A stretch of 23,871 nt of DNA from UHGV virus genome UHGV-0138833; one strand, 5' to 3'. Below the pieces are notes generated by a model, which saw nothing but the letters and a program-made list of their open reading frames with translations, searched no databases and was not told the origin of the DNA. Numbering within the stretch: the first letter of the stretch is position 1; the number at the start of each line of letters is the position of its first letter. The translations under genes and the position numbers were made by a program. The DNA is from a virus. Shown piece by piece: positions 2,749-23,871 of this stretch.

Positions 2749-3012
2749 TTATCCTGCTGTGCTTTCAACTGATGAGGGGAATAAAATCTTTTCATCAAAT
2801 CCGGCATTCATATCATGGACAGCAACACACCAATCCATCGACGAACGATTATCAAGAGCCTCCATGATTTCATCCATGCGGCGCAGGTCATACAGGTAAA
2901 TGCTTTTATCGCCAATGGTGTAAAAACCAATTTTTTTCGGTGATGGGCAGCGATCAAGAACGTCCTGTAATTCGTTCAACCATGCCCGTTCTTTTTTTGT
3001 TAAAGTTGCCAT
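2749..3012 (-). CDS. Hypothetical phage protein (about 88 aa)
   Basis: Start taken at MATLTKK (ATG 3012) with GGAGAG RBS; abuts the stop of the upstream gene. Confidence 0.5.
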   Translation of the reverse strand: MATLTKKERAWLNELQDVLDRCPSPKKIGFYTIGDKSIYLYDLRRMDEIMEALDNRSSMDWCVAVHDMNAGFDEKILFPSSVESTAG

Positions 3013-15131: not shown

Positions 15132-15491
15132 ATGCTCATAGATTTGGTTTTACCTTACCCGCCGACGGTGAACACTTACTGGCGACGCCGTGGCAGCACA
15201 TATTTTGTATCAAAAGCCGGGGAGCGTTATCGCCGGGCAGTGGCGCTTATTGTTCGCCAGCAGCGGCTGAAATTAAGCCTGTCCGGAAGGCTGGCGATAA
15301 AGGTGATTGCAGAGCCACCGGATAAGCGCCGTCGTGACCTGGACAATATTCTGAAAGCACCACTGGATGCACTGACACATGCGGGGTTGCTTATCGACGA
15401 CGAGCAGTTTGATGAAATCAATATTGTGCGCGGACTGCCTGTTCCTGGTGGTCGGTTGGGGATAAAAATCACAGAGCTGGAGTGCGCATGA
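15132..15491 (+). CDS. rusA: RusA-family Holliday junction resolvase (119 aa)
   Basis: Close resemblance to E. coli RusA as recalled: LPYPPTVNTYWRRRG..., DKRRRDLDNILKAPLDALTHAGLLIDDEQ, GGRLGIKITELE. Confidence 0.8.
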   Translation: MLIDLVLPYPPTVNTYWRRRGSTYFVSKAGERYRRAVALIVRQQRLKLSLSGRLAIKVIAEPPDKRRRDLDNILKAPLDALTHAGLLIDDEQFDEINIVRGLPVPGGRLGIKITELECA

Positions 15492-16177
15492 ATAACCAGT
15501 ATTTACAGTTTGTTCGTGAGCAACTCATTATCGCCACCGCCGATTTGAGTGGGGCAACAAAAGGTCAGCTTGAAGCCTGGCAGGAGAATGCCATGTTTGA
15601 TACAGGGCGTTACAGACGTAAAAAAATCCGGTACCGCGATAAGGTCACTGGAAAAATGGTAACGCTGGATAATCCACCGATCCCGGGAAAGCAATCGCTG
15701 GCGAAAGGTTCATCAATTGCCCTAGTCAGTCCGGTTGAGTTTTCGACATCATCATGGCGACGCGCCGTTCTGTCTCTTGAAGAGCATCAGAAGGCGTGGG
15801 TACTGTGGGTATACAGTGAAAATCCGAGTTGGGATTATCAGGTGGTCATTGCGAAATGGGCGTGGGATAAGTTTCAGGTGCATTTTGGCACCAGAAAAAT
15901 TACAGGGAAAACGCTTGAGCGTCTGAAGAAATTAATCTGGCTGGCGGCGCAGGATGTCAGGGGGAGGATTACTGGGTGTGACGTCTACCAGCGACAGGAA
16001 CTTGCCAGACTGTGTGGAGTTAAGTCAGACAACTGGAGCCACAATTATGCGCACTACTGGCGTGATATGTGCGACATTTTTAAGAACCTCGACAACGAAT
16101 CTTTGATTTATACCATGAAAACAAGATCGCAACAAAAAGCGACCTTTTCGCGGCGGGTTATTGCAAAAGTCAATTAA
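15488..16177 (+). CDS. Putative late-gene antiterminator (Q-like, about 229 aa)
   Basis: Assignment is positional: directly after rusA with an ATGA overlap and followed within about 70 nt by a terminator-like hairpin (lambda Q-PR'-tR' geometry). No sequence motif was confirmed. Confidence 0.4.
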   Translation: MNNQYLQFVREQLIIATADLSGATKGQLEAWQENAMFDTGRYRRKKIRYRDKVTGKMVTLDNPPIPGKQSLAKGSSIALVSPVEFSTSSWRRAVLSLEEHQKAWVLWVYSENPSWDYQVVIAKWAWDKFQVHFGTRKITGKTLERLKKLIWLAAQDVRGRITGCDVYQRQELARLCGVKSDNWSHNYAHYWRDMCDIFKNLDNESLIYTMKTRSQQKATFSRRVIAKVN

Positions 16178-17990: not shown

Positions 17991-19040
17991 ATGCTTAATA
18001 CTGTAAAAATATCCAGTTGTGAGTTAATCAACGCCGACTGCCTGGAATTTATCCGGTCGTTACCCGAAAATTCTGTTGACCTGATAGTTACGGACCCGCC
18101 GTACTTTAAAGTGAAGCCTGAGGGCTGGGATAACCAGTGGAAGGGCGACGATGATTACCTGAAGTGGCTGGACCAGTGTCTGGCGCAGTTCTGGCGGGTG
18201 CTGAAACCTGCCGGAAGTCTTTACCTGTTCTGTGGTCATCGCCTGGCATCTGATATCGAAATCATGATGCGTGAACGCTTCAGTGTGCTGAACCATATTA
18301 TCTGGGCGAAGCCGTCCGGACGCTGGAACGGATGCAACAAGGAAAGCCTGCGGGCGTATTTCCCCGCCACAGAGCGCATTCTGTTCGCGGAACATTATCA
18401 GGGGCCGTATCGTCCGAAAGATGCCGGGTATGAGGCGAAGGGCAGGGCACTGAAACAGCATGTGATGGCCCCGCTGATTGCTTACTTTCGTGATGCGCGC
18501 GCTGCCCTGGGGATAACGGCAAAACAGATTGCAGATGCCACAGGAAAGAAAAACATGGTGCCGCACTGGTTCAGTGCCAGTCAGTGGCAGCTACCGAACG
18601 AAAGCGATTATCTGAAATTACAGTCGCTGTTTGCCCGGGTGGCAGAAGAGAAACATCAGCGCGGGGAACTGGAAAAGCCACACCACCAGCTGGTCAGCAC
18701 ATACAGTGAGCTGAACCGGCAGTATATGGAACTGCTGAGTGAATATAAAAATTTGCGGCGGTATTTCGGTGTGACGGTGCAGGTGCCGTACACCGATGTG
18801 TGGACGTATAAACCGGTGCAGTACTATCCCGGGAAACATCCGTGCGAAAAACCGGCAGAAATGCTGCAGCAGATAATCAGCGCAAGTAGTCGTCCTGGTG
18901 ATCTGGTTGCGGATTTTTTCATGGGGTCGGGTTCAACGGTAAAAGCGGCGATGGCACTGGGGCGTCGTGCGATTGGTGTTGAGCTGGAGACCGGACGTTT
19001 TGAGCAGACAGTCAGGGAAGTTCAGGATTTAATCGTTTGA
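17991..19040 (+). CDS. DNA amino-methyltransferase (probable N6-adenine, beta-class motif order; 349 aa)
   Basis: Catalytic motif IV DPPY (VTDPPYF) near the N-terminus and AdoMet motif I FFMGSGST near the C-terminus. No adjacent restriction endonuclease, so apparently orphan. Confidence 0.8.
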   Translation: MLNTVKISSCELINADCLEFIRSLPENSVDLIVTDPPYFKVKPEGWDNQWKGDDDYLKWLDQCLAQFWRVLKPAGSLYLFCGHRLASDIEIMMRERFSVLNHIIWAKPSGRWNGCNKESLRAYFPATERILFAEHYQGPYRPKDAGYEAKGRALKQHVMAPLIAYFRDARAALGITAKQIADATGKKNMVPHWFSASQWQLPNESDYLKLQSLFARVAEEKHQRGELEKPHHQLVSTYSELNRQYMELLSEYKNLRRYFGVTVQVPYTDVWTYKPVQYYPGKHPCEKPAEMLQQIISASSRPGDLVADFFMGSGSTVKAAMALGRRAIGVELETGRFEQTVREVQDLIV

Positions 19041-19089: not shown

Positions 19090-19165
19090 GGCCCTTTAGC
19101 TCAGTGGTGAGAGCGAGCGACTCATAATCGCCAGGTCGCTGGTTCAAATCCAGCAAGGGCCACCA
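19090..19165 (+). tRNA. tRNA with anticodon CAU (Ile2-like, ileX/ileZ type; Met not excluded)
   Basis: Manual cloverleaf: acceptor GGCCCTT/AAGGGCC, D-arm GCTC..GAGC, anticodon loop CTCATAA, T-arm GCTGG-TTCAAAT-CCAGC, encoded CCA. Resembles E. coli ileX as recalled. Confidence 0.8.
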
Positions 19166-19172
19166 TCACATA

Positions 19173-19249
19173 CCGCCATTAGCTCATCAGGAAAGAGCGC
19201 CAGCCTTCGAAGCTGGCTGCGCGGGGTTCAAGTCCCCGATGGCGGTCCA
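19173..19249 (+). tRNA. tRNA-Arg (anticodon UCG)
   Basis: Manual cloverleaf: acceptor CCGCCAT/ATGGCGG, anticodon stem CCAGC/GCTGG with loop CTTCGAA, T-arm CGGGG-TTCAAGT-CCCCG, encoded CCA. Confidence 0.75.
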
Positions 19250-19262
19250 TTATCTGCATCAT

Positions 19263-19339
19263 GCGTTGTTAGCTCAGCCGGACAGAGCAATTGCCTTCTA
19301 AGCAATCGGTCACTGGTTCGAATCCAGTACAGCGCGCCA
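19263..19339 (+). tRNA. tRNA-Arg (anticodon UCU)
   Basis: Manual cloverleaf: acceptor GCGTTGT/ACAGCGC (one G-U pair), anticodon stem ATTGC/GCAAT with loop CTTCTAA, T-arm ACTGG-TTCGAAT-CCAGT, G73, encoded CCA. Confidence 0.8.
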
Positions 19340-20250: not shown

Positions 20251-20586
20251 TTATGGACTTTGTTGTTTTAGCCCATAAGGACATATTTGCAGAGTGCAAC
20301 GGTTATTAAAGCATTCATTCAATACGTTATCTGTATTTGTAGGGCATTCCTGGCTGTTTTTGATTAAATTCCAGAATGTTTTATTGAATGGTACTACGTT
20401 GTAAATGGTTACAGGCAGCACTTTGTTATTGAGCATGATGCCTGTGTGAGTCAGTGTAAATATACTTTCAGGAGGTAAGAAAGCATCCGATTGATACCAG
20501 ATTATTAATTTTATTTTACTCCATATGACTGAAAAAGATATTCCGCATGATGGCTGGATAACTGTATCAATCACAATCCACTTCAT
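20251..20586 (-). CDS. Hypothetical protein (111 aa), very AT-rich, convergent with the preceding plus-strand unit
   Basis: Good AAGGAAA RBS about 5 nt upstream of ATG 20586. Cys-containing; no recognisable domain. Confidence 0.5.
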
Positions 20587-21342: not shown

Positions 21343-21558
21343 ATGTACCAGATGGAAAAAATCACAACAGGTGTGTCATACACCACGTCAGCGGTGGGAA
21401 CGGGCTACTGGTTCCTGCAGTTGCTGGACAGGGTTTCCCCGTCTCAGTGGGCGGCAATAGGCGTGCTGGGGAGTCTGCTGTTTGGGCTGCTGACATATCT
21501 GACTAACCTGTATTTCAAAATCAAAGAGGACCGGCGTAAGGCGGCGCGGGGAGAGTAA
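21343..21558 (+). CDS. Pinholin (phage 21 S-type holin, 71/68 aa) with dual-start motif
   Basis: [10 protein letters not shown]... has two in-frame starts (Met1, Met4). Core ...[51 protein letters not shown] closely matches the S21 pinholin as recalled. GGAG RBS present. Confidence 0.8.
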
Positions 21559-21562
21559 AGTG

Positions 21563-22453
21563 ATGAATAAAAAATATGAACTGGTTGTTAAGGGGATAAA
21601 TAATTACGGGGATAAGGTTACTGTTACTGTGAAGCCGGAAGGTGACGGGCAAGCGTCGCTGTTGTTGCCAGATGTGGCGATTAGTCTTGACCGTACTGAA
21701 GGTGCCACGCTGGAGTTTTACGAAGCTGAGGCGAAAAAGCAGGCGAAGCAGTTTTTCATGGATGTTGCTGCCGGGTTATGTGAAGGGGATGGTCCGTTGC
21801 CGGAAAAGCGCCCCGTAATTTTAGAGGCGCAGGATGTGTTGATAACCTACAAAGGAAAGCTACCGGGAAGAATTACTTGTTCTCTGAAGATGCCGCCGTC
21901 AACACTGCGGTCAGAAAAAGATGATGTTGAATCACGTATTGAAAAACTGGAGAGCTACGTCGTTGAGCTGAATAAGAAATGGTCGATATTGGTGCCTTCT
22001 GGCGATGAAAAGCAGTTTGCTGCGTTTGACGATTATTGTCGGAAAGTGATGAGCAGAAATCTCGCAGAGTGTTTCAGTATTCATAATGATAATTTCAGTG
22101 ACCCGGAATGGGAGTGTAACCGGCCATCCTTTGTTGTATCCGGTGATGCTGGGAAAATAACCATCTCAGAAAATGGGAAAGTAACACCTCCATCGCACCA
22201 GCACAGTGAGGAGCTCATTGAATTTGCCATTGATTACCTGAAGAACAATAAAAAGCAGGGGCTGATGAAGCGCGTTGGCCGTTGCATGGGATATCTGCAG
22301 GTAGCTGCTGAGATTGAAGCGCTGGCCAGTGGTGCTGATAAGGATGCAATTGTGCGGGAGGCTCTTCTTCGTGATTTTAATACTCCACCCTTTAAAAAAG
22401 TGCCGGCTTACTGGCTTCATCCGGGGCTGACTTATCTTAAAGTGCGTATTTAG
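21563..22453 (+). CDS. Hypothetical soluble protein (296 aa) inserted between pinholin and endolysin
   Basis: GGAGAG RBS 7 nt upstream of ATG 21563. No TM segment or recognisable catalytic motif. Lower GC than flanking lysis genes (visual estimate). Confidence 0.6.
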   Translation: MNKKYELVVKGINNYGDKVTVTVKPEGDGQASLLLPDVAISLDRTEGATLEFYEAEAKKQAKQFFMDVAAGLCEGDGPLPEKRPVILEAQDVLITYKGKLPGRITCSLKMPPSTLRSEKDDVESRIEKLESYVVELNKKWSILVPSGDEKQFAAFDDYCRKVMSRNLAECFSIHNDNFSDPEWECNRPSFVVSGDAGKITISENGKVTPPSHQHSEELIEFAIDYLKNNKKQGLMKRVGRCMGYLQVAAEIEALASGADKDAIVREALLRDFNTPPFKKVPAYWLHPGLTYLKVRI

Positions 22454-22489: not shown

Positions 22490-23023
22490 ATGAACACCAA
22501 AATCAAATACGGCCTGTCGGCTGCCGTTCTGGCGCTGATTGCCGCTGGTGCGCCTGCGCCTGACATTCTCGACCAGTTTCTGGATGAAAAGGAAGGCAAG
22601 CACACCACAGCATACCGTGATGGTGCAGGTATCTGGACCATCTGCCGTGGTGCCATCATGGTGGATGGCAAACCTGTCGTTCCGGGCATGAAGTTGTCGA
22701 AGGAAAAATGCGACCAGGTTAACGCCATTGAGCGTGATAAAGCGCTGGCGTGGGTGGAGAAAAACATCAGAGTGCCGCTGACCGAACCCCAGAAAGCGGG
22801 GATCGCGTCATTCTGTCCGTACAACATTGGTCCCGGTAAGTGTTTCCCGTCGACGTTTTACAGACGAATTAATGCTGGTGATCGAAAAGGTGCCTGCGAA
22901 GCGATTCGCTGGTGGATTAAGGACGGTGGCAGAGACTGCCGTATTCGTTCAAACAACTGTTACGGTCAGGTATCCCGTCGTGACCAGGAGAGCGCGCTGG
23001 CGTGCTGGGGTATCGACAGATAA
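22490..23023 (+). CDS. SAR endolysin (phage 21 R-type lysozyme, GH24-like; 177 aa)
   Basis: N-terminal signal-anchor-release segment YGLSAAVLALIAAGAPAP; E-D-T catalytic arrangement in EGKHTTAYRDGAGIWTICRG; C-terminal ACWG. Pairs with the pinholin. Confidence 0.8.
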   Translation: MNTKIKYGLSAAVLALIAAGAPAPDILDQFLDEKEGKHTTAYRDGAGIWTICRGAIMVDGKPVVPGMKLSKEKCDQVNAIERDKALAWVEKNIRVPLTEPQKAGIASFCPYNIGPGKCFPSTFYRRINAGDRKGACEAIRWWIKDGGRDCRIRSNNCYGQVSRRDQESALACWGIDR

Positions 23024-23215
23024 GCAGAATATTTTGCTGAAAAATGAGGAATGGCCACGCGGGCGGATAACACGAAATCCTGCGAACTGGCGAAACGTAA
23101 GTGAATAAAAGTAAAAACCCCGTTTGTTGGCACCAAGCGAGGTTTTGTGTTTCTGACCTTGAGTAAGGCAAGGGAGAACATGGCGAAGTGTAAACGAATT
23201 CTGTTGAGGTTGACT

Positions 23216-23362
23216 ATGAAAAATGGCCTTGAACTGAAAGCGCCTGTAACTGATGACATCAGCAGAGCACTGGCTTTTGCCATTAAGTGGGTGGCGGTCG
23301 GTGTTGCTGTGTCCCCGATGCTGTATGGGCTGGCAAAACTGGTCATTGCGTTGAAATCGTGA
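23216..23362 (+). CDS. Hypothetical small membrane peptide (about 48 aa; alternative start ATG 23180)
   Basis: GAGG RBS 6 nt upstream of ATG 23216. Hydrophobic segment [27 protein letters not shown]. Confidence 0.35.
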
Positions 23363-23376
23363 AGGGAGGATTAAGC

Positions 23377-23508
23377 ATGTCAGACAAACTCATAACGCTG
23401 GCGAAGATCCTCTGTGTAATTGTCGGCATTTCATTTTCACTAATGCTGGTTGCTCTTTTTCTTTCCATGGCCTGGATGATGTTGTCTTCGTCGGGGTTGC
23501 TGGGGTGA
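23377..23508 (+). CDS. Hypothetical small TM peptide (43 aa)
   Basis: Strong GGGAGGA RBS 5-6 nt upstream of ATG 23377. Almost entirely hydrophobic ([26 protein letters not shown]). Stop overlaps the Rz start region. Confidence 0.45.
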
Positions 23509-23519
23509 ACATAAACCGA

Positions 23520-23871
23520 ATGCTTTCCGCGTTTATCGTTATTCTGCTGGTGGCCTGTGGTGCGCTGTGGATGGCAACAGACCATTACCGTGATAACGCG
23601 ATTACCTACAAAGCGCAGCGCGATAACAAAGCCAGTGAACTGAAGCTGGCGAACGCAACCATTACTGATATGCAGGTGCGCCAGCGCGATGTTGCTGCGC
23701 TCGATGCAAAATACTCGAGGGAATTAGCCGATGCGAGAACTGAAAATGAAACTCTTCGCGCTGACGTTGCCGCTGGTCGTAAGCGCCTGCGGATCAACGC
23801 CACCTGTCCAGGCTCCGTGCGTGAAGCCACCACCGCCTCCGGCGTGGATAATGCAGCCTCCCCCCGACTGG
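23520..23871 (+). CDS. Rz: Rz i-spanin, 3'-truncated by the window end
   Basis: Hand translation [65 protein letters not shown]... matches lambda Rz as recalled. Not in the ORF track because no stop lies within the window. Confidence 0.8.
23731..23871 (+). CDS. Rz1: Rz1 o-spanin lipoprotein, embedded in Rz in a different reading frame, 3'-truncated
   Basis: Hand translation [47 protein letters not shown]: lipobox LVVSAC and proline-rich region typical of Rz1. Confidence 0.75.

Follow-up and report, generated by a model that had tools for sequence, protein, structure and literature searches.

The subject of this analysis is a pair of very small genes in a 23,871-nucleotide (nt) stretch of viral DNA, UHGV virus genome UHGV-0138833, referred to in its full length as the window. 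The window ends in the lysis cassette of a lambdoid Escherichia coli prophage, located downstream of the antiterminator gene Q, a DNA methylase gene and three tRNA genes, and in this cassette the two open reading frames lie between the endolysin and the spanin genes Rz/Rz1, ORF1 coming first and ORF2 second. Both are on the plus strand. ORF1 is listed by the Prokaryotic Genome Annotation Pipeline (PGAP) as a 60-residue protein (WP_001446668.1; 23180-23362, ATG at 23180, TGA at 23360-23362), within which an in-frame ATG at 23216 opens a constrained core of 48 residues (23216-23362), and ORF2 encodes 43 residues (WP_001280932.1; 23377-23508, ATG at 23377, TGA at 23506-23508). An earlier note on this DNA, made from the sequence alone, had described two hydrophobic peptides of about 48 and 43 amino acids with one transmembrane-like segment each, and they are confirmed at 23180-23508, the 48 residues being counted from ATG 23216. 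The ribosome-binding sites that it assigned to them are present, in the form of Shine-Dalgarno-like elements at GGGAG (23172-23176) and GAGG (23206-23209, 6 nt before ATG 23216) for ORF1 and a strong GGGAGGA (23364-23370, plus strand, read from the sequence), 6 nt before the ATG of ORF2. Its statement that canonical cassettes of the lambda type have no gene in this slot also holds, as R and Rz overlap by 4 nt in lambda and abut one another in DLP12 and Qin.

Comparison of alleles indicates that ORF1 and ORF2 are genuine protein-coding genes under purifying selection. About 150 loci were gathered and distinct alleles were extracted from them, giving 32 DNA alleles of ORF1 and, with copies from Shiga toxin (Stx) phages and GH108 cassettes added, 29 of ORF2. 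In a first scan of viral contigs ORF2 had 98-100% amino acid identity across 80 loci, and the diversity was taken from a Salmonella-type ORF1 query, E. coli hits and Stx phages. The ratios of non-synonymous to synonymous substitution rates (dN/dS) were obtained from pooled pairwise counts on related sequences, not from tree-based codon models, and the contrast between the proposed frames and the others is clear despite this. The pooled value for ORF1 is 0.27 in frame versus 0.52 and 2.5 in the two alternative frames, with 14/5/26 variable sites at the three codon positions, and individual pairs have ratios of 0.09-0.30 over the core at synonymous divergence (dS) of up to 1.1. For ORF2 the pooled value is 0.30 in frame versus 0.93 and 1.57 off frame, and it is 0.20-0.30 in each third of the gene. 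Pairs of ORF2 alleles from divergent clades (dS 0.7-1.6) have ratios of mostly 0.04-0.3, with 0.41 for the window versus phage 933W, and closely related pairs have ratios of 0.5-0.7. Substitutions lean synonymous solely in the proposed frames, with binomial p values for this excess of ~2e-5 for ORF1 and ~2e-5 for ORF2. The reading frames are open in all alleles, and the 29 alleles of ORF2 contain neither a frameshift nor a premature stop. Conservation of the frames among homologous cassettes, which the earlier note had named together with dN/dS as a check on its proposal, was therefore found for both genes.

Selection is distributed very unevenly along ORF1. The pooled dN/dS falls from 1.25 in codons 1-12 to 0.027 in codons 13-30 and is 0.285 in codons 31-60, and the same partition is seen when the window is compared with the Salmonella-type allele, as codons 13-60 have 19 synonymous and 12 non-synonymous differences (dS 0.84, ratio 0.14) and codons 1-12 have no synonymous and four non-synonymous differences, one of which converts the first ATG to GTG. 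From this pattern it follows that the first 36 nt of ORF1 are kept as nucleotides rather than as codons, and such nucleotide-level conservation would suit a translation-initiation leader for the second ATG. Codons 2-12 (23183-23215) contain no synonymous change between the E. coli and Salmonella-type sequences, and the dS just downstream is 0.8-1.1, near saturation. A regulatory RNA structure in the conserved leader was considered and rejected, since the predicted fold of the leader does not surpass that of its shuffled versions (z 0.01), and neither does that of the entire spacer between R and ORF1 (z −0.75). Both ATGs and both Shine-Dalgarno-like elements are kept in 65 distinct segments, and the distant relatives of ORF1 mostly begin at MKNG, with a few of them retaining a basic N-terminal extension. 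The assignment of the ORF1 product as the 48-residue protein from ATG 23216 is well supported by these sequence patterns, and the second ATG is probably the better start. A longer and more basic isoform of 60 residues from ATG 23180 is possible, and a dual start of this type would, speculatively, recall the holin/antiholin pairs.

The ORF1 core consists of a very strongly conserved N-terminal motif of 18 residues followed by one long, moderately hydrophobic helix, and it ends in KS. Its best 19-residue window has a mean Kyte-Doolittle value of 1.88, which is moderate and can be compared with 1.74 for the SAR (signal-anchor-release) domain and 1.70 for the pinholin transmembrane domain (TMD) in the same cassette. 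An AlphaFold2 model based on the family alignment predicts a single helix at residues 11-47 (predicted local distance difference test score 84). ORF2 is very different, as nearly all of it is one strongly hydrophobic TMD with a mean Kyte-Doolittle value of 2.89 over 19 residues, leaving only MSDK on one side of the helix and ~10 residues on the other. Its length is fixed at 43-44 residues, and the strongly hydrophobic helix is kept in every clade. Paralogy of ORF1 and ORF2 was rejected on the basis of a profile-profile comparison (hhalign probability 2.4%).

Upstream of ORF1 there is a terminator-like hairpin with a T-run (23113-23152, of which the hairpin is 23113-23146; plus strand), identified by a terminator scan and by folding, in which AAAAACCCCG and CGAGGTTTT are separated by a 15-nt inner part. 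The hairpin is the exact left edge of a block of homology that runs through the leader and ORF1 and that is common to cassettes with SAR lysozyme, GH108 and M15 peptidase endolysins. The stem is kept while loops and inner stems differ, and at one locus the outer stem has a compensatory change from AAAACCCCG/CGGGGTTTT to AAAGCCCCG/CGGGGCTTT. Sequence comparison thus identifies ORF1 as a mobile block that starts at the hairpin and has come to lie downstream of at least three unrelated types of endolysin. Other copies of the hairpin are found at L086 ~2975-3010, L134 1904-1940 and L087 2802-2840 among the loci gathered (L numbers are our locus designations). An A-run upstream gives the hairpin a bidirectional appearance, and the copy in the window has a G-to-A mismatch in the stem.

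As the earlier note had observed, ORF2 abuts the start of Rz, and its stop codon overlaps a GTG at 23505 (GTGA, 23505-23508), with the Rz start assigned by PGAP being the ATG at 23520. Translation from GTG 23505 would place MNINR before the Rz TMD, with a basic residue there, just as 933W-type Rz begins with MNR, and translation from the PGAP ATG would give MLSAF, which has no charged residue ahead of the TMD. The start of Rz is ambiguous and may lie at the GTG shared with the end of ORF2. Among the 29 alleles examined, the gene immediately after ORF2 is Rz or one for a lipoprotein, except in the rearranged type represented by L087, where it is a truncated copy of ORF1. The spacing to the next gene is small throughout, being either the overlap at GTGA or a distance of 11 nt from the ATG for Rz type A, 8 nt for Rz type B, and 8 nt for the gene of a 60-residue lipoprotein in GH108/M15 cassettes. 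In all three junction types the 3′ end of ORF2 (GGGGTGA or GGTGGA) is also the Shine-Dalgarno-like element of the downstream gene, and a G-rich Shine-Dalgarno sequence precedes ORF2 in every upstream context (ORF1, the antirepressor gene ant, or non-homologous spacer). Because the ORF2 stop is 0-11 nt from the next start and its last codons are the ribosome-binding region of that gene, ORF2 is probably translated in step with Rz, and translational coupling of the two is likely.

Neither gene is rare. The segment 23020-23560 was detected in 2,125 of 5,426 complete E. coli genomes, with coverage of at least 80% in 989 of them and identity of at least 99% in 420 records, and the ORF1 plus ORF2 pair is present in approximately 989-1,035 of the 5,426. 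Both ORFs are found in the plaque-forming phages PhiR5_2 and PhiR12_x, and RefSeq lists both as hypothetical proteins. ORF2 is confined to phages of Escherichia and Shigella and is very common there, as 276 phage records contain a full-length homolog, among them 933W, phi24B, Min27 and the O104:H4-type phages. In 933W (L150, AF125520) the homolog has 44 residues (MISDKLITLVKSLCVLVG..., positions 2498-2632 of the locus and 27435-27569 of the record), matches phrog_4906 with an expectation value (E) of 1e-27, and occupies, without annotation, the 153-nt gap that separates ant from Rz. Most of the listed Stx phage records have no annotated feature at this position, and a few annotate ORF2 as a 49-residue protein (MEWWLMISDK...) with a start that overlaps the ant stop. 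In Stx phages, as judged from these sequences, ORF2 accompanies Rz almost universally and is mostly left unannotated.

The arrangements in which they occur make ORF1 and ORF2 independent modules. The junction types that we encountered are R-Rz, R-ORF1-ORF2-Rz, R-ORF2-Rz, R-ant-ORF2-Rz and R-ORF1-Rz. Of the first 150 sources (149 loci plus the window), 118 have the ORF1 family together with ORF2, and ORF1 precedes Rz without ORF2 in the Salmonella-type cassette. There are also cases in which a truncated ORF1, or a short paralog of 28 residues ending in RWW, abuts Rz or the lipoprotein gene. In E. coli and Salmonella, genes of the ORF1 family are found behind endolysins of the SAR lysozyme, GH108 and M15 types, and one follows an endolysin with GH19 and PG_binding domains in a P2-like phage. 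A relative of ORF1 abuts Rz in a Yersinia prophage remnant. An exhaustive hidden Markov model search of 1.84 billion representative sequences yielded 18 representatives of the ORF1 family, and a profile search of genome contigs with the ORF1 alignment gave pattern matches, none of which was confirmed.

Other single-helix ORFs were also seen in the slot between endolysin and Rz, including one of 31 residues (MISQLPNWKF..., phrog_6632), one of 49 residues (MIKAETT..., no PHROG match) and one of 50 residues (MQVKDNN..., phrog_12997). These additional small ORFs and the 28-residue RWW paralogs are located in L087 (2907-3353), in L090 and L093 (3218-3450) and in L146 and L148 (2850-3132), with L087 having the rearranged order ORF2, truncated ORF1, short paralog and Rz. 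Two further loci, L086 (1675-3858) and L134 (808-2480), contain two holins and a GH108 or M15 endolysin and no recognizable Rz/Rz1, and in these the 60-residue lipoprotein (phrog_7528) is in the spanin position, right after ORF2 or an ORF1-family gene. The possibility that ORF1 or ORF2 provides the missing i-spanin of such cassettes was rejected, as the two peptides have essentially no periplasmic domain.

Both genes have already been catalogued, as hypothetical proteins and as PHROG families, and they belong to no characterized family. ORF1 matches phrog_1115 (E 3.7e-42, residues 1-60) as well as phrog_4493 and phrog_3246, and ORF2 matches phrog_4906 (E 2.1e-23, residues 1-43), families that carry no functional annotation and so name the genes without explaining them. 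Scans of both peptides against Pfam, NCBIfam and PADLOC gave nothing but DUF3930 at an E of 0.08, which is below the cut-off, and there is no PADLOC match to a defense system at E up to 1. Neither ORF is related to any solved structure. With respect to holins and antiholins, both have the transmembrane helix expected of these proteins according to Kyte-Doolittle windows, but they lack the charged C-terminal tail, as ORF1 ends in LVIALKS and ORF2 in SSSGLLG and the holin of the cassette, for comparison, has such a tail; no match to a holin family was obtained in Pfam or PHROG at E up to 1. A releasin of the Mu type has its gene no more than five genes downstream of the endolysin, as ORF1 and ORF2 do, and it carries a TMD at the N-terminus and then ~70 residues of cytoplasmic domain. 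The helix of ORF1 is C-terminal, ORF2 has only ~10 residues outside its helix, and Pfam gave no match to DUF2730 in either of them. Membership in a SAR-specific releasin-like class was therefore rejected, given the opposite architecture and the presence of both ORFs with GH108 and M15 endolysins. They are also not spanins, as they have fewer than 61 residues, lack a lipobox cysteine context, do not match PF03245 and are followed by the true Rz/Rz1.

We tentatively propose, at somewhat less than an even chance, that ORF1 and ORF2 are non-essential accessory lysis proteins of the inner membrane that tune lysis. Both share the strand and the tight spacing of the Q-dependent lysis genes, and no promoter-like site was found on either strand of 22800-23871 in a scan that covered the sigma-70 consensus only. 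From strand, spacing and the lack of such a site, we infer that they are made late together with holin, endolysin and spanin. They would be produced alongside these as single-pass inner-membrane micro-proteins, with membrane insertion and topology as predicted from their sequences, and they would set when or how sharply lysis happens, by way of holin triggering, release of the SAR endolysin or the membrane anchor of the spanin. ORF2 is in addition coupled physically to the gene for outer membrane disruption that follows it, be it Rz type A, Rz type B or the small lipoprotein. The two proteins would perform no lysis step themselves, because the cassettes of lambda, DLP12 and Qin are organized without them. 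As a kind, they fit the small accessory membrane proteins of phage late operons.

The suggestion in the earlier note that these peptides are antiholin-like modulators of lysis timing thus survives in part. Modulation of lysis is still the best guess, by analogy, given their position, their probable co-expression with the lysis genes, their membrane character and precedents elsewhere, and the antiholin-like part finds no counterpart in homology to any known holin, antiholin or releasin. Several observations weigh against the proposal. Searches of Pfam, PHROG, NCBIfam and structures gave no sequence kinship to characterized holins, antiholins, releasins or spanins, and a literature search found no study of ORF1 or ORF2 and no report of their translation or of a lysis phenotype, and two comparative papers on Stx phages leave them unmentioned. 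Both ORFs are found with several classes of holin and endolysin and so are not partners specific to the pinholin or the SAR endolysin, which makes a pinholin- or SAR-specific role unlikely. Three of the five distant ORF1 relatives with readable context are in tail modules, the other two being beside lysis genes, and the family therefore behaves like a generic mobile gene of late operons. The linkage of ORF2 to Rz could be plain genetic hitch-hiking, and the restriction of the promoter scan to the sigma-70 consensus counts on the same side.

A quite different explanation, the main rival though on balance an unlikely one, is that ORF1 and ORF2 are moron-like accessory genes that help the phage or lysogen otherwise, for example by superinfection exclusion or by interfering with a host membrane protein, have nothing to do with lysis, and occupy the R-Rz junction because it is a permissive recombination joint. 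Exclusion at the inner membrane by blocking DNA entry has been reported for HK97 gp15 and T4 Imm, and the morons of late operons, such as lambda bor and lom and HK97 gp15, are small membrane proteins with their own promoter and a downstream terminator that are expressed in the lysogen. ORF1 and ORF2 resemble them in being inserted at a junction, in their mosaic distribution and in being present or absent between conserved flanks. ORF1 moves among otherwise non-homologous cassettes as a discrete block of hairpin, leader and gene, its distant relatives are found in tail modules like classical morons, and cassettes of the lambda type function without either gene. The slot is also used by other DNA, namely ant in the Stx phages and the unrelated small ORFs with a TMD (phrog_6632, phrog_12997 and the 49-residue ORF with no PHROG match). 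However, neither ORF has a promoter-like site of its own, and the sole terminator-like hairpin is upstream rather than downstream of ORF1, so that expression in the lysogen is not obviously provided for. There is likewise no match to a defense family, and in none of the 29 alleles examined is ORF2 separated from the gene next after the endolysin block, against which it is packed.

The packing of ORF2 against its neighbor could also be explained if ORF2 were a translated leader, a peptide with little function that restores the coupling of R to Rz after ant, ORF1 or other DNA had split them. R overlaps Rz in a similar way in lambda and DLP12, and the overlap of the ORF2 stop with the candidate GTG of Rz (or its position 8-11 nt before an ATG) and the use of the ORF2 3′ end as a Shine-Dalgarno-like element in all three junction types are what such a device would need. 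This explanation is nevertheless improbable, as the amino acids of ORF2 are under purifying selection from end to end (dN/dS of 0.20-0.30 per third, and 0.04-0.3 at dS up to 1.6), and the fixed length of 43-44 residues and the hydrophobic helix present in every clade would be needless for coupling alone. We consider it very improbable that the peptides are membrane-damaging toxins, as had also been suggested in the earlier note, either of the Hok-like kind encoded by type I toxin-antitoxin systems or as extra holin-like killers. Their size and hydrophobicity, and above all those of ORF2 with its 43 residues that are nearly all TMD, are like those of type I toxins, but neither Pfam nor NCBIfam matched them to Hok or any other toxin family, both ORFs lack the charged C-terminal tail typical of holins, and both belong to a polycistronic late operon with tight spacing. 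The antisense RNA and promoter of a type I system were also not found. The sigma-70 consensus scan of 22800-23871 gave no promoter-like site on either strand, and Rfam gave no family at E < 0.9, its best match in 22900-23871 having an E of 0.94, on the minus strand, which is at chance level and to an unrelated leader. The least credible explanation is that the two are chance ORFs in an intergenic spacer, the last of the options raised earlier. They are short, no function has been assigned to them and ORF2 is unannotated in many phage records, but their frames are kept in all alleles with a synonymous excess in the proposed frame alone, both are listed by PGAP and PHROG, and ORF1 is conserved as far as Salmonella and Yersinia and ORF2 in all major lineages of Stx phages.

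For the proposal that ORF1 and ORF2 modulate lysis, a parallel in position is LysA of phage P2, a non-essential membrane protein encoded between the endolysin gene K and the spanin genes lysB/lysC and reported to affect lysis timing. P2 LysA shares the endolysin-to-spanin slot with ORF1 and ORF2 but is much larger and has several TMDs, in contrast to their one helix each. The Mu releasin gp25 is a DUF2730 protein of 99 residues with an N-terminal TMD (N-out, C-in) and an acidic cytoplasmic domain of 73 residues (PMC9239132). Like ORF1 and ORF2, it is small and membrane-tethered, has its gene a few genes away from that of a SAR endolysin, and is accessory to the holin/endolysin/spanin scheme. 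The layout of ORF1 is the opposite, however, ORF2 has hardly any soluble part, and neither of them matches DUF2730. Moreover, their cassette has its own pinholin, and they also occur with endolysins that are not of the SAR type. The Shewanella phage LambdaSo encodes Lcc6, a 65-residue protein with a single N-terminal TMD and a cytoplasmic tail of 43 residues that is essential for lysis (bioRxiv 10.1101/2024.01.23.576932). It is needed beside the pinholin, SAR endolysin and Rz-Rz1, has its effect at the holin level and is encoded far from the lysis cassette (bioRxiv 10.1101/2024.01.23.576932). Lcc6 shows that micro-proteins of this sort can be genuine lysis factors, and it is set beside ORF1 and ORF2 here by description and not by sequence. 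Unlike Lcc6, the two are evidently dispensable for their type of cassette, as lambda lacks them. In Salmonella phage BSPM4, ORF52 is a small protein reported to modulate holin function and lysis timing (PMC11657625), and it is similar to ORF1 and ORF2 in its small size and proposed role, with no sign of kinship in sequence or position.

If ORF1 and ORF2 do modulate lysis, the model of holin, endolysin and spanin would gain a widespread accessory layer in the best-studied group of phages, for which, to our knowledge, there are just isolated precedents in the Mu releasin and LambdaSo Lcc6. A still broader generalization, which is speculative and on present evidence rather doubtful, would be that temperate phages of enterobacteria keep, at the junction from endolysin to spanin, a shuffling set of unrelated single-helix micro-proteins (the long and short forms of ORF1, ORF2 and at least three more). 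These would represent an unrecognized fourth class of lysis genes, acting in the inner membrane either on the triggering of the holin or on the anchor of the spanin, such that ORF2 would influence the timing of lysis and of Shiga toxin release. As ORF2 precedes Rz in essentially the whole lineage of Stx phages, it would, if it is a modulator, be a candidate determinant of both. Whatever its function, a conserved gene of 43-44 residues is absent from the annotation of 933W and of most Stx phage records. Should there be no phenotype, ORF1 and ORF2 would represent routine small conserved hypothetical genes at a mosaic joint.

The remainder of the cassette and its surroundings are as follows. Q (15482-16177, PF06323) is on the same strand as the lysis genes, and between it and the lysis region is the DNA methylase gene (17991-19040). 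The genes for three tRNAs, Met(CAT), Arg(TCG) and Arg(TCT), are located at 19090-19339 between the methylase gene and the lysis region, and a minus-strand gene at 20251-20586 is the counterpart of one labeled as the anti-adapter IraM in the identical locus. The holin, on the plus strand like the lysis genes that follow it, is a class II pinholin of the phage 21 S type (21343-21558; 71 residues, dual start at Met1/Met4; PF04971, E 7e-33), and in L001, an identical locus, its PGAP label is 'class II holin'. The SAR lysozyme is of the R21/RrrQ type (22490-23023; 177 residues; PF00959, E 3e-24), has a weakly hydrophobic N-terminal segment and is annotated as 'lysozyme' in L001. At the end of the cassette, the i-spanin gene Rz (23505-23871, with its start at GTG 23505 or ATG 23520; PF03245, E 3e-33) and, in the +1 frame of Rz, the gene for the o-spanin lipoprotein Rz1 (23746-23871), which has a lipobox and a proline-rich mature part, both run past the end of the window. 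Between holin and endolysin is a DUF1327/YdfR-like gene of 297 residues (21560-22453; PF07041, E 4e-40; phrog_1085 over its full length, E 2e-188). It is intact in the window, with the DUF1327/YdfR domain at the N-terminus, and in the identical region of strain 7/2 PGAP records a truncated YdfR-family pseudogene. The YdfR of K-12 has merely 103 residues, and the 297-residue gene represents a further non-canonical insertion in this cassette.

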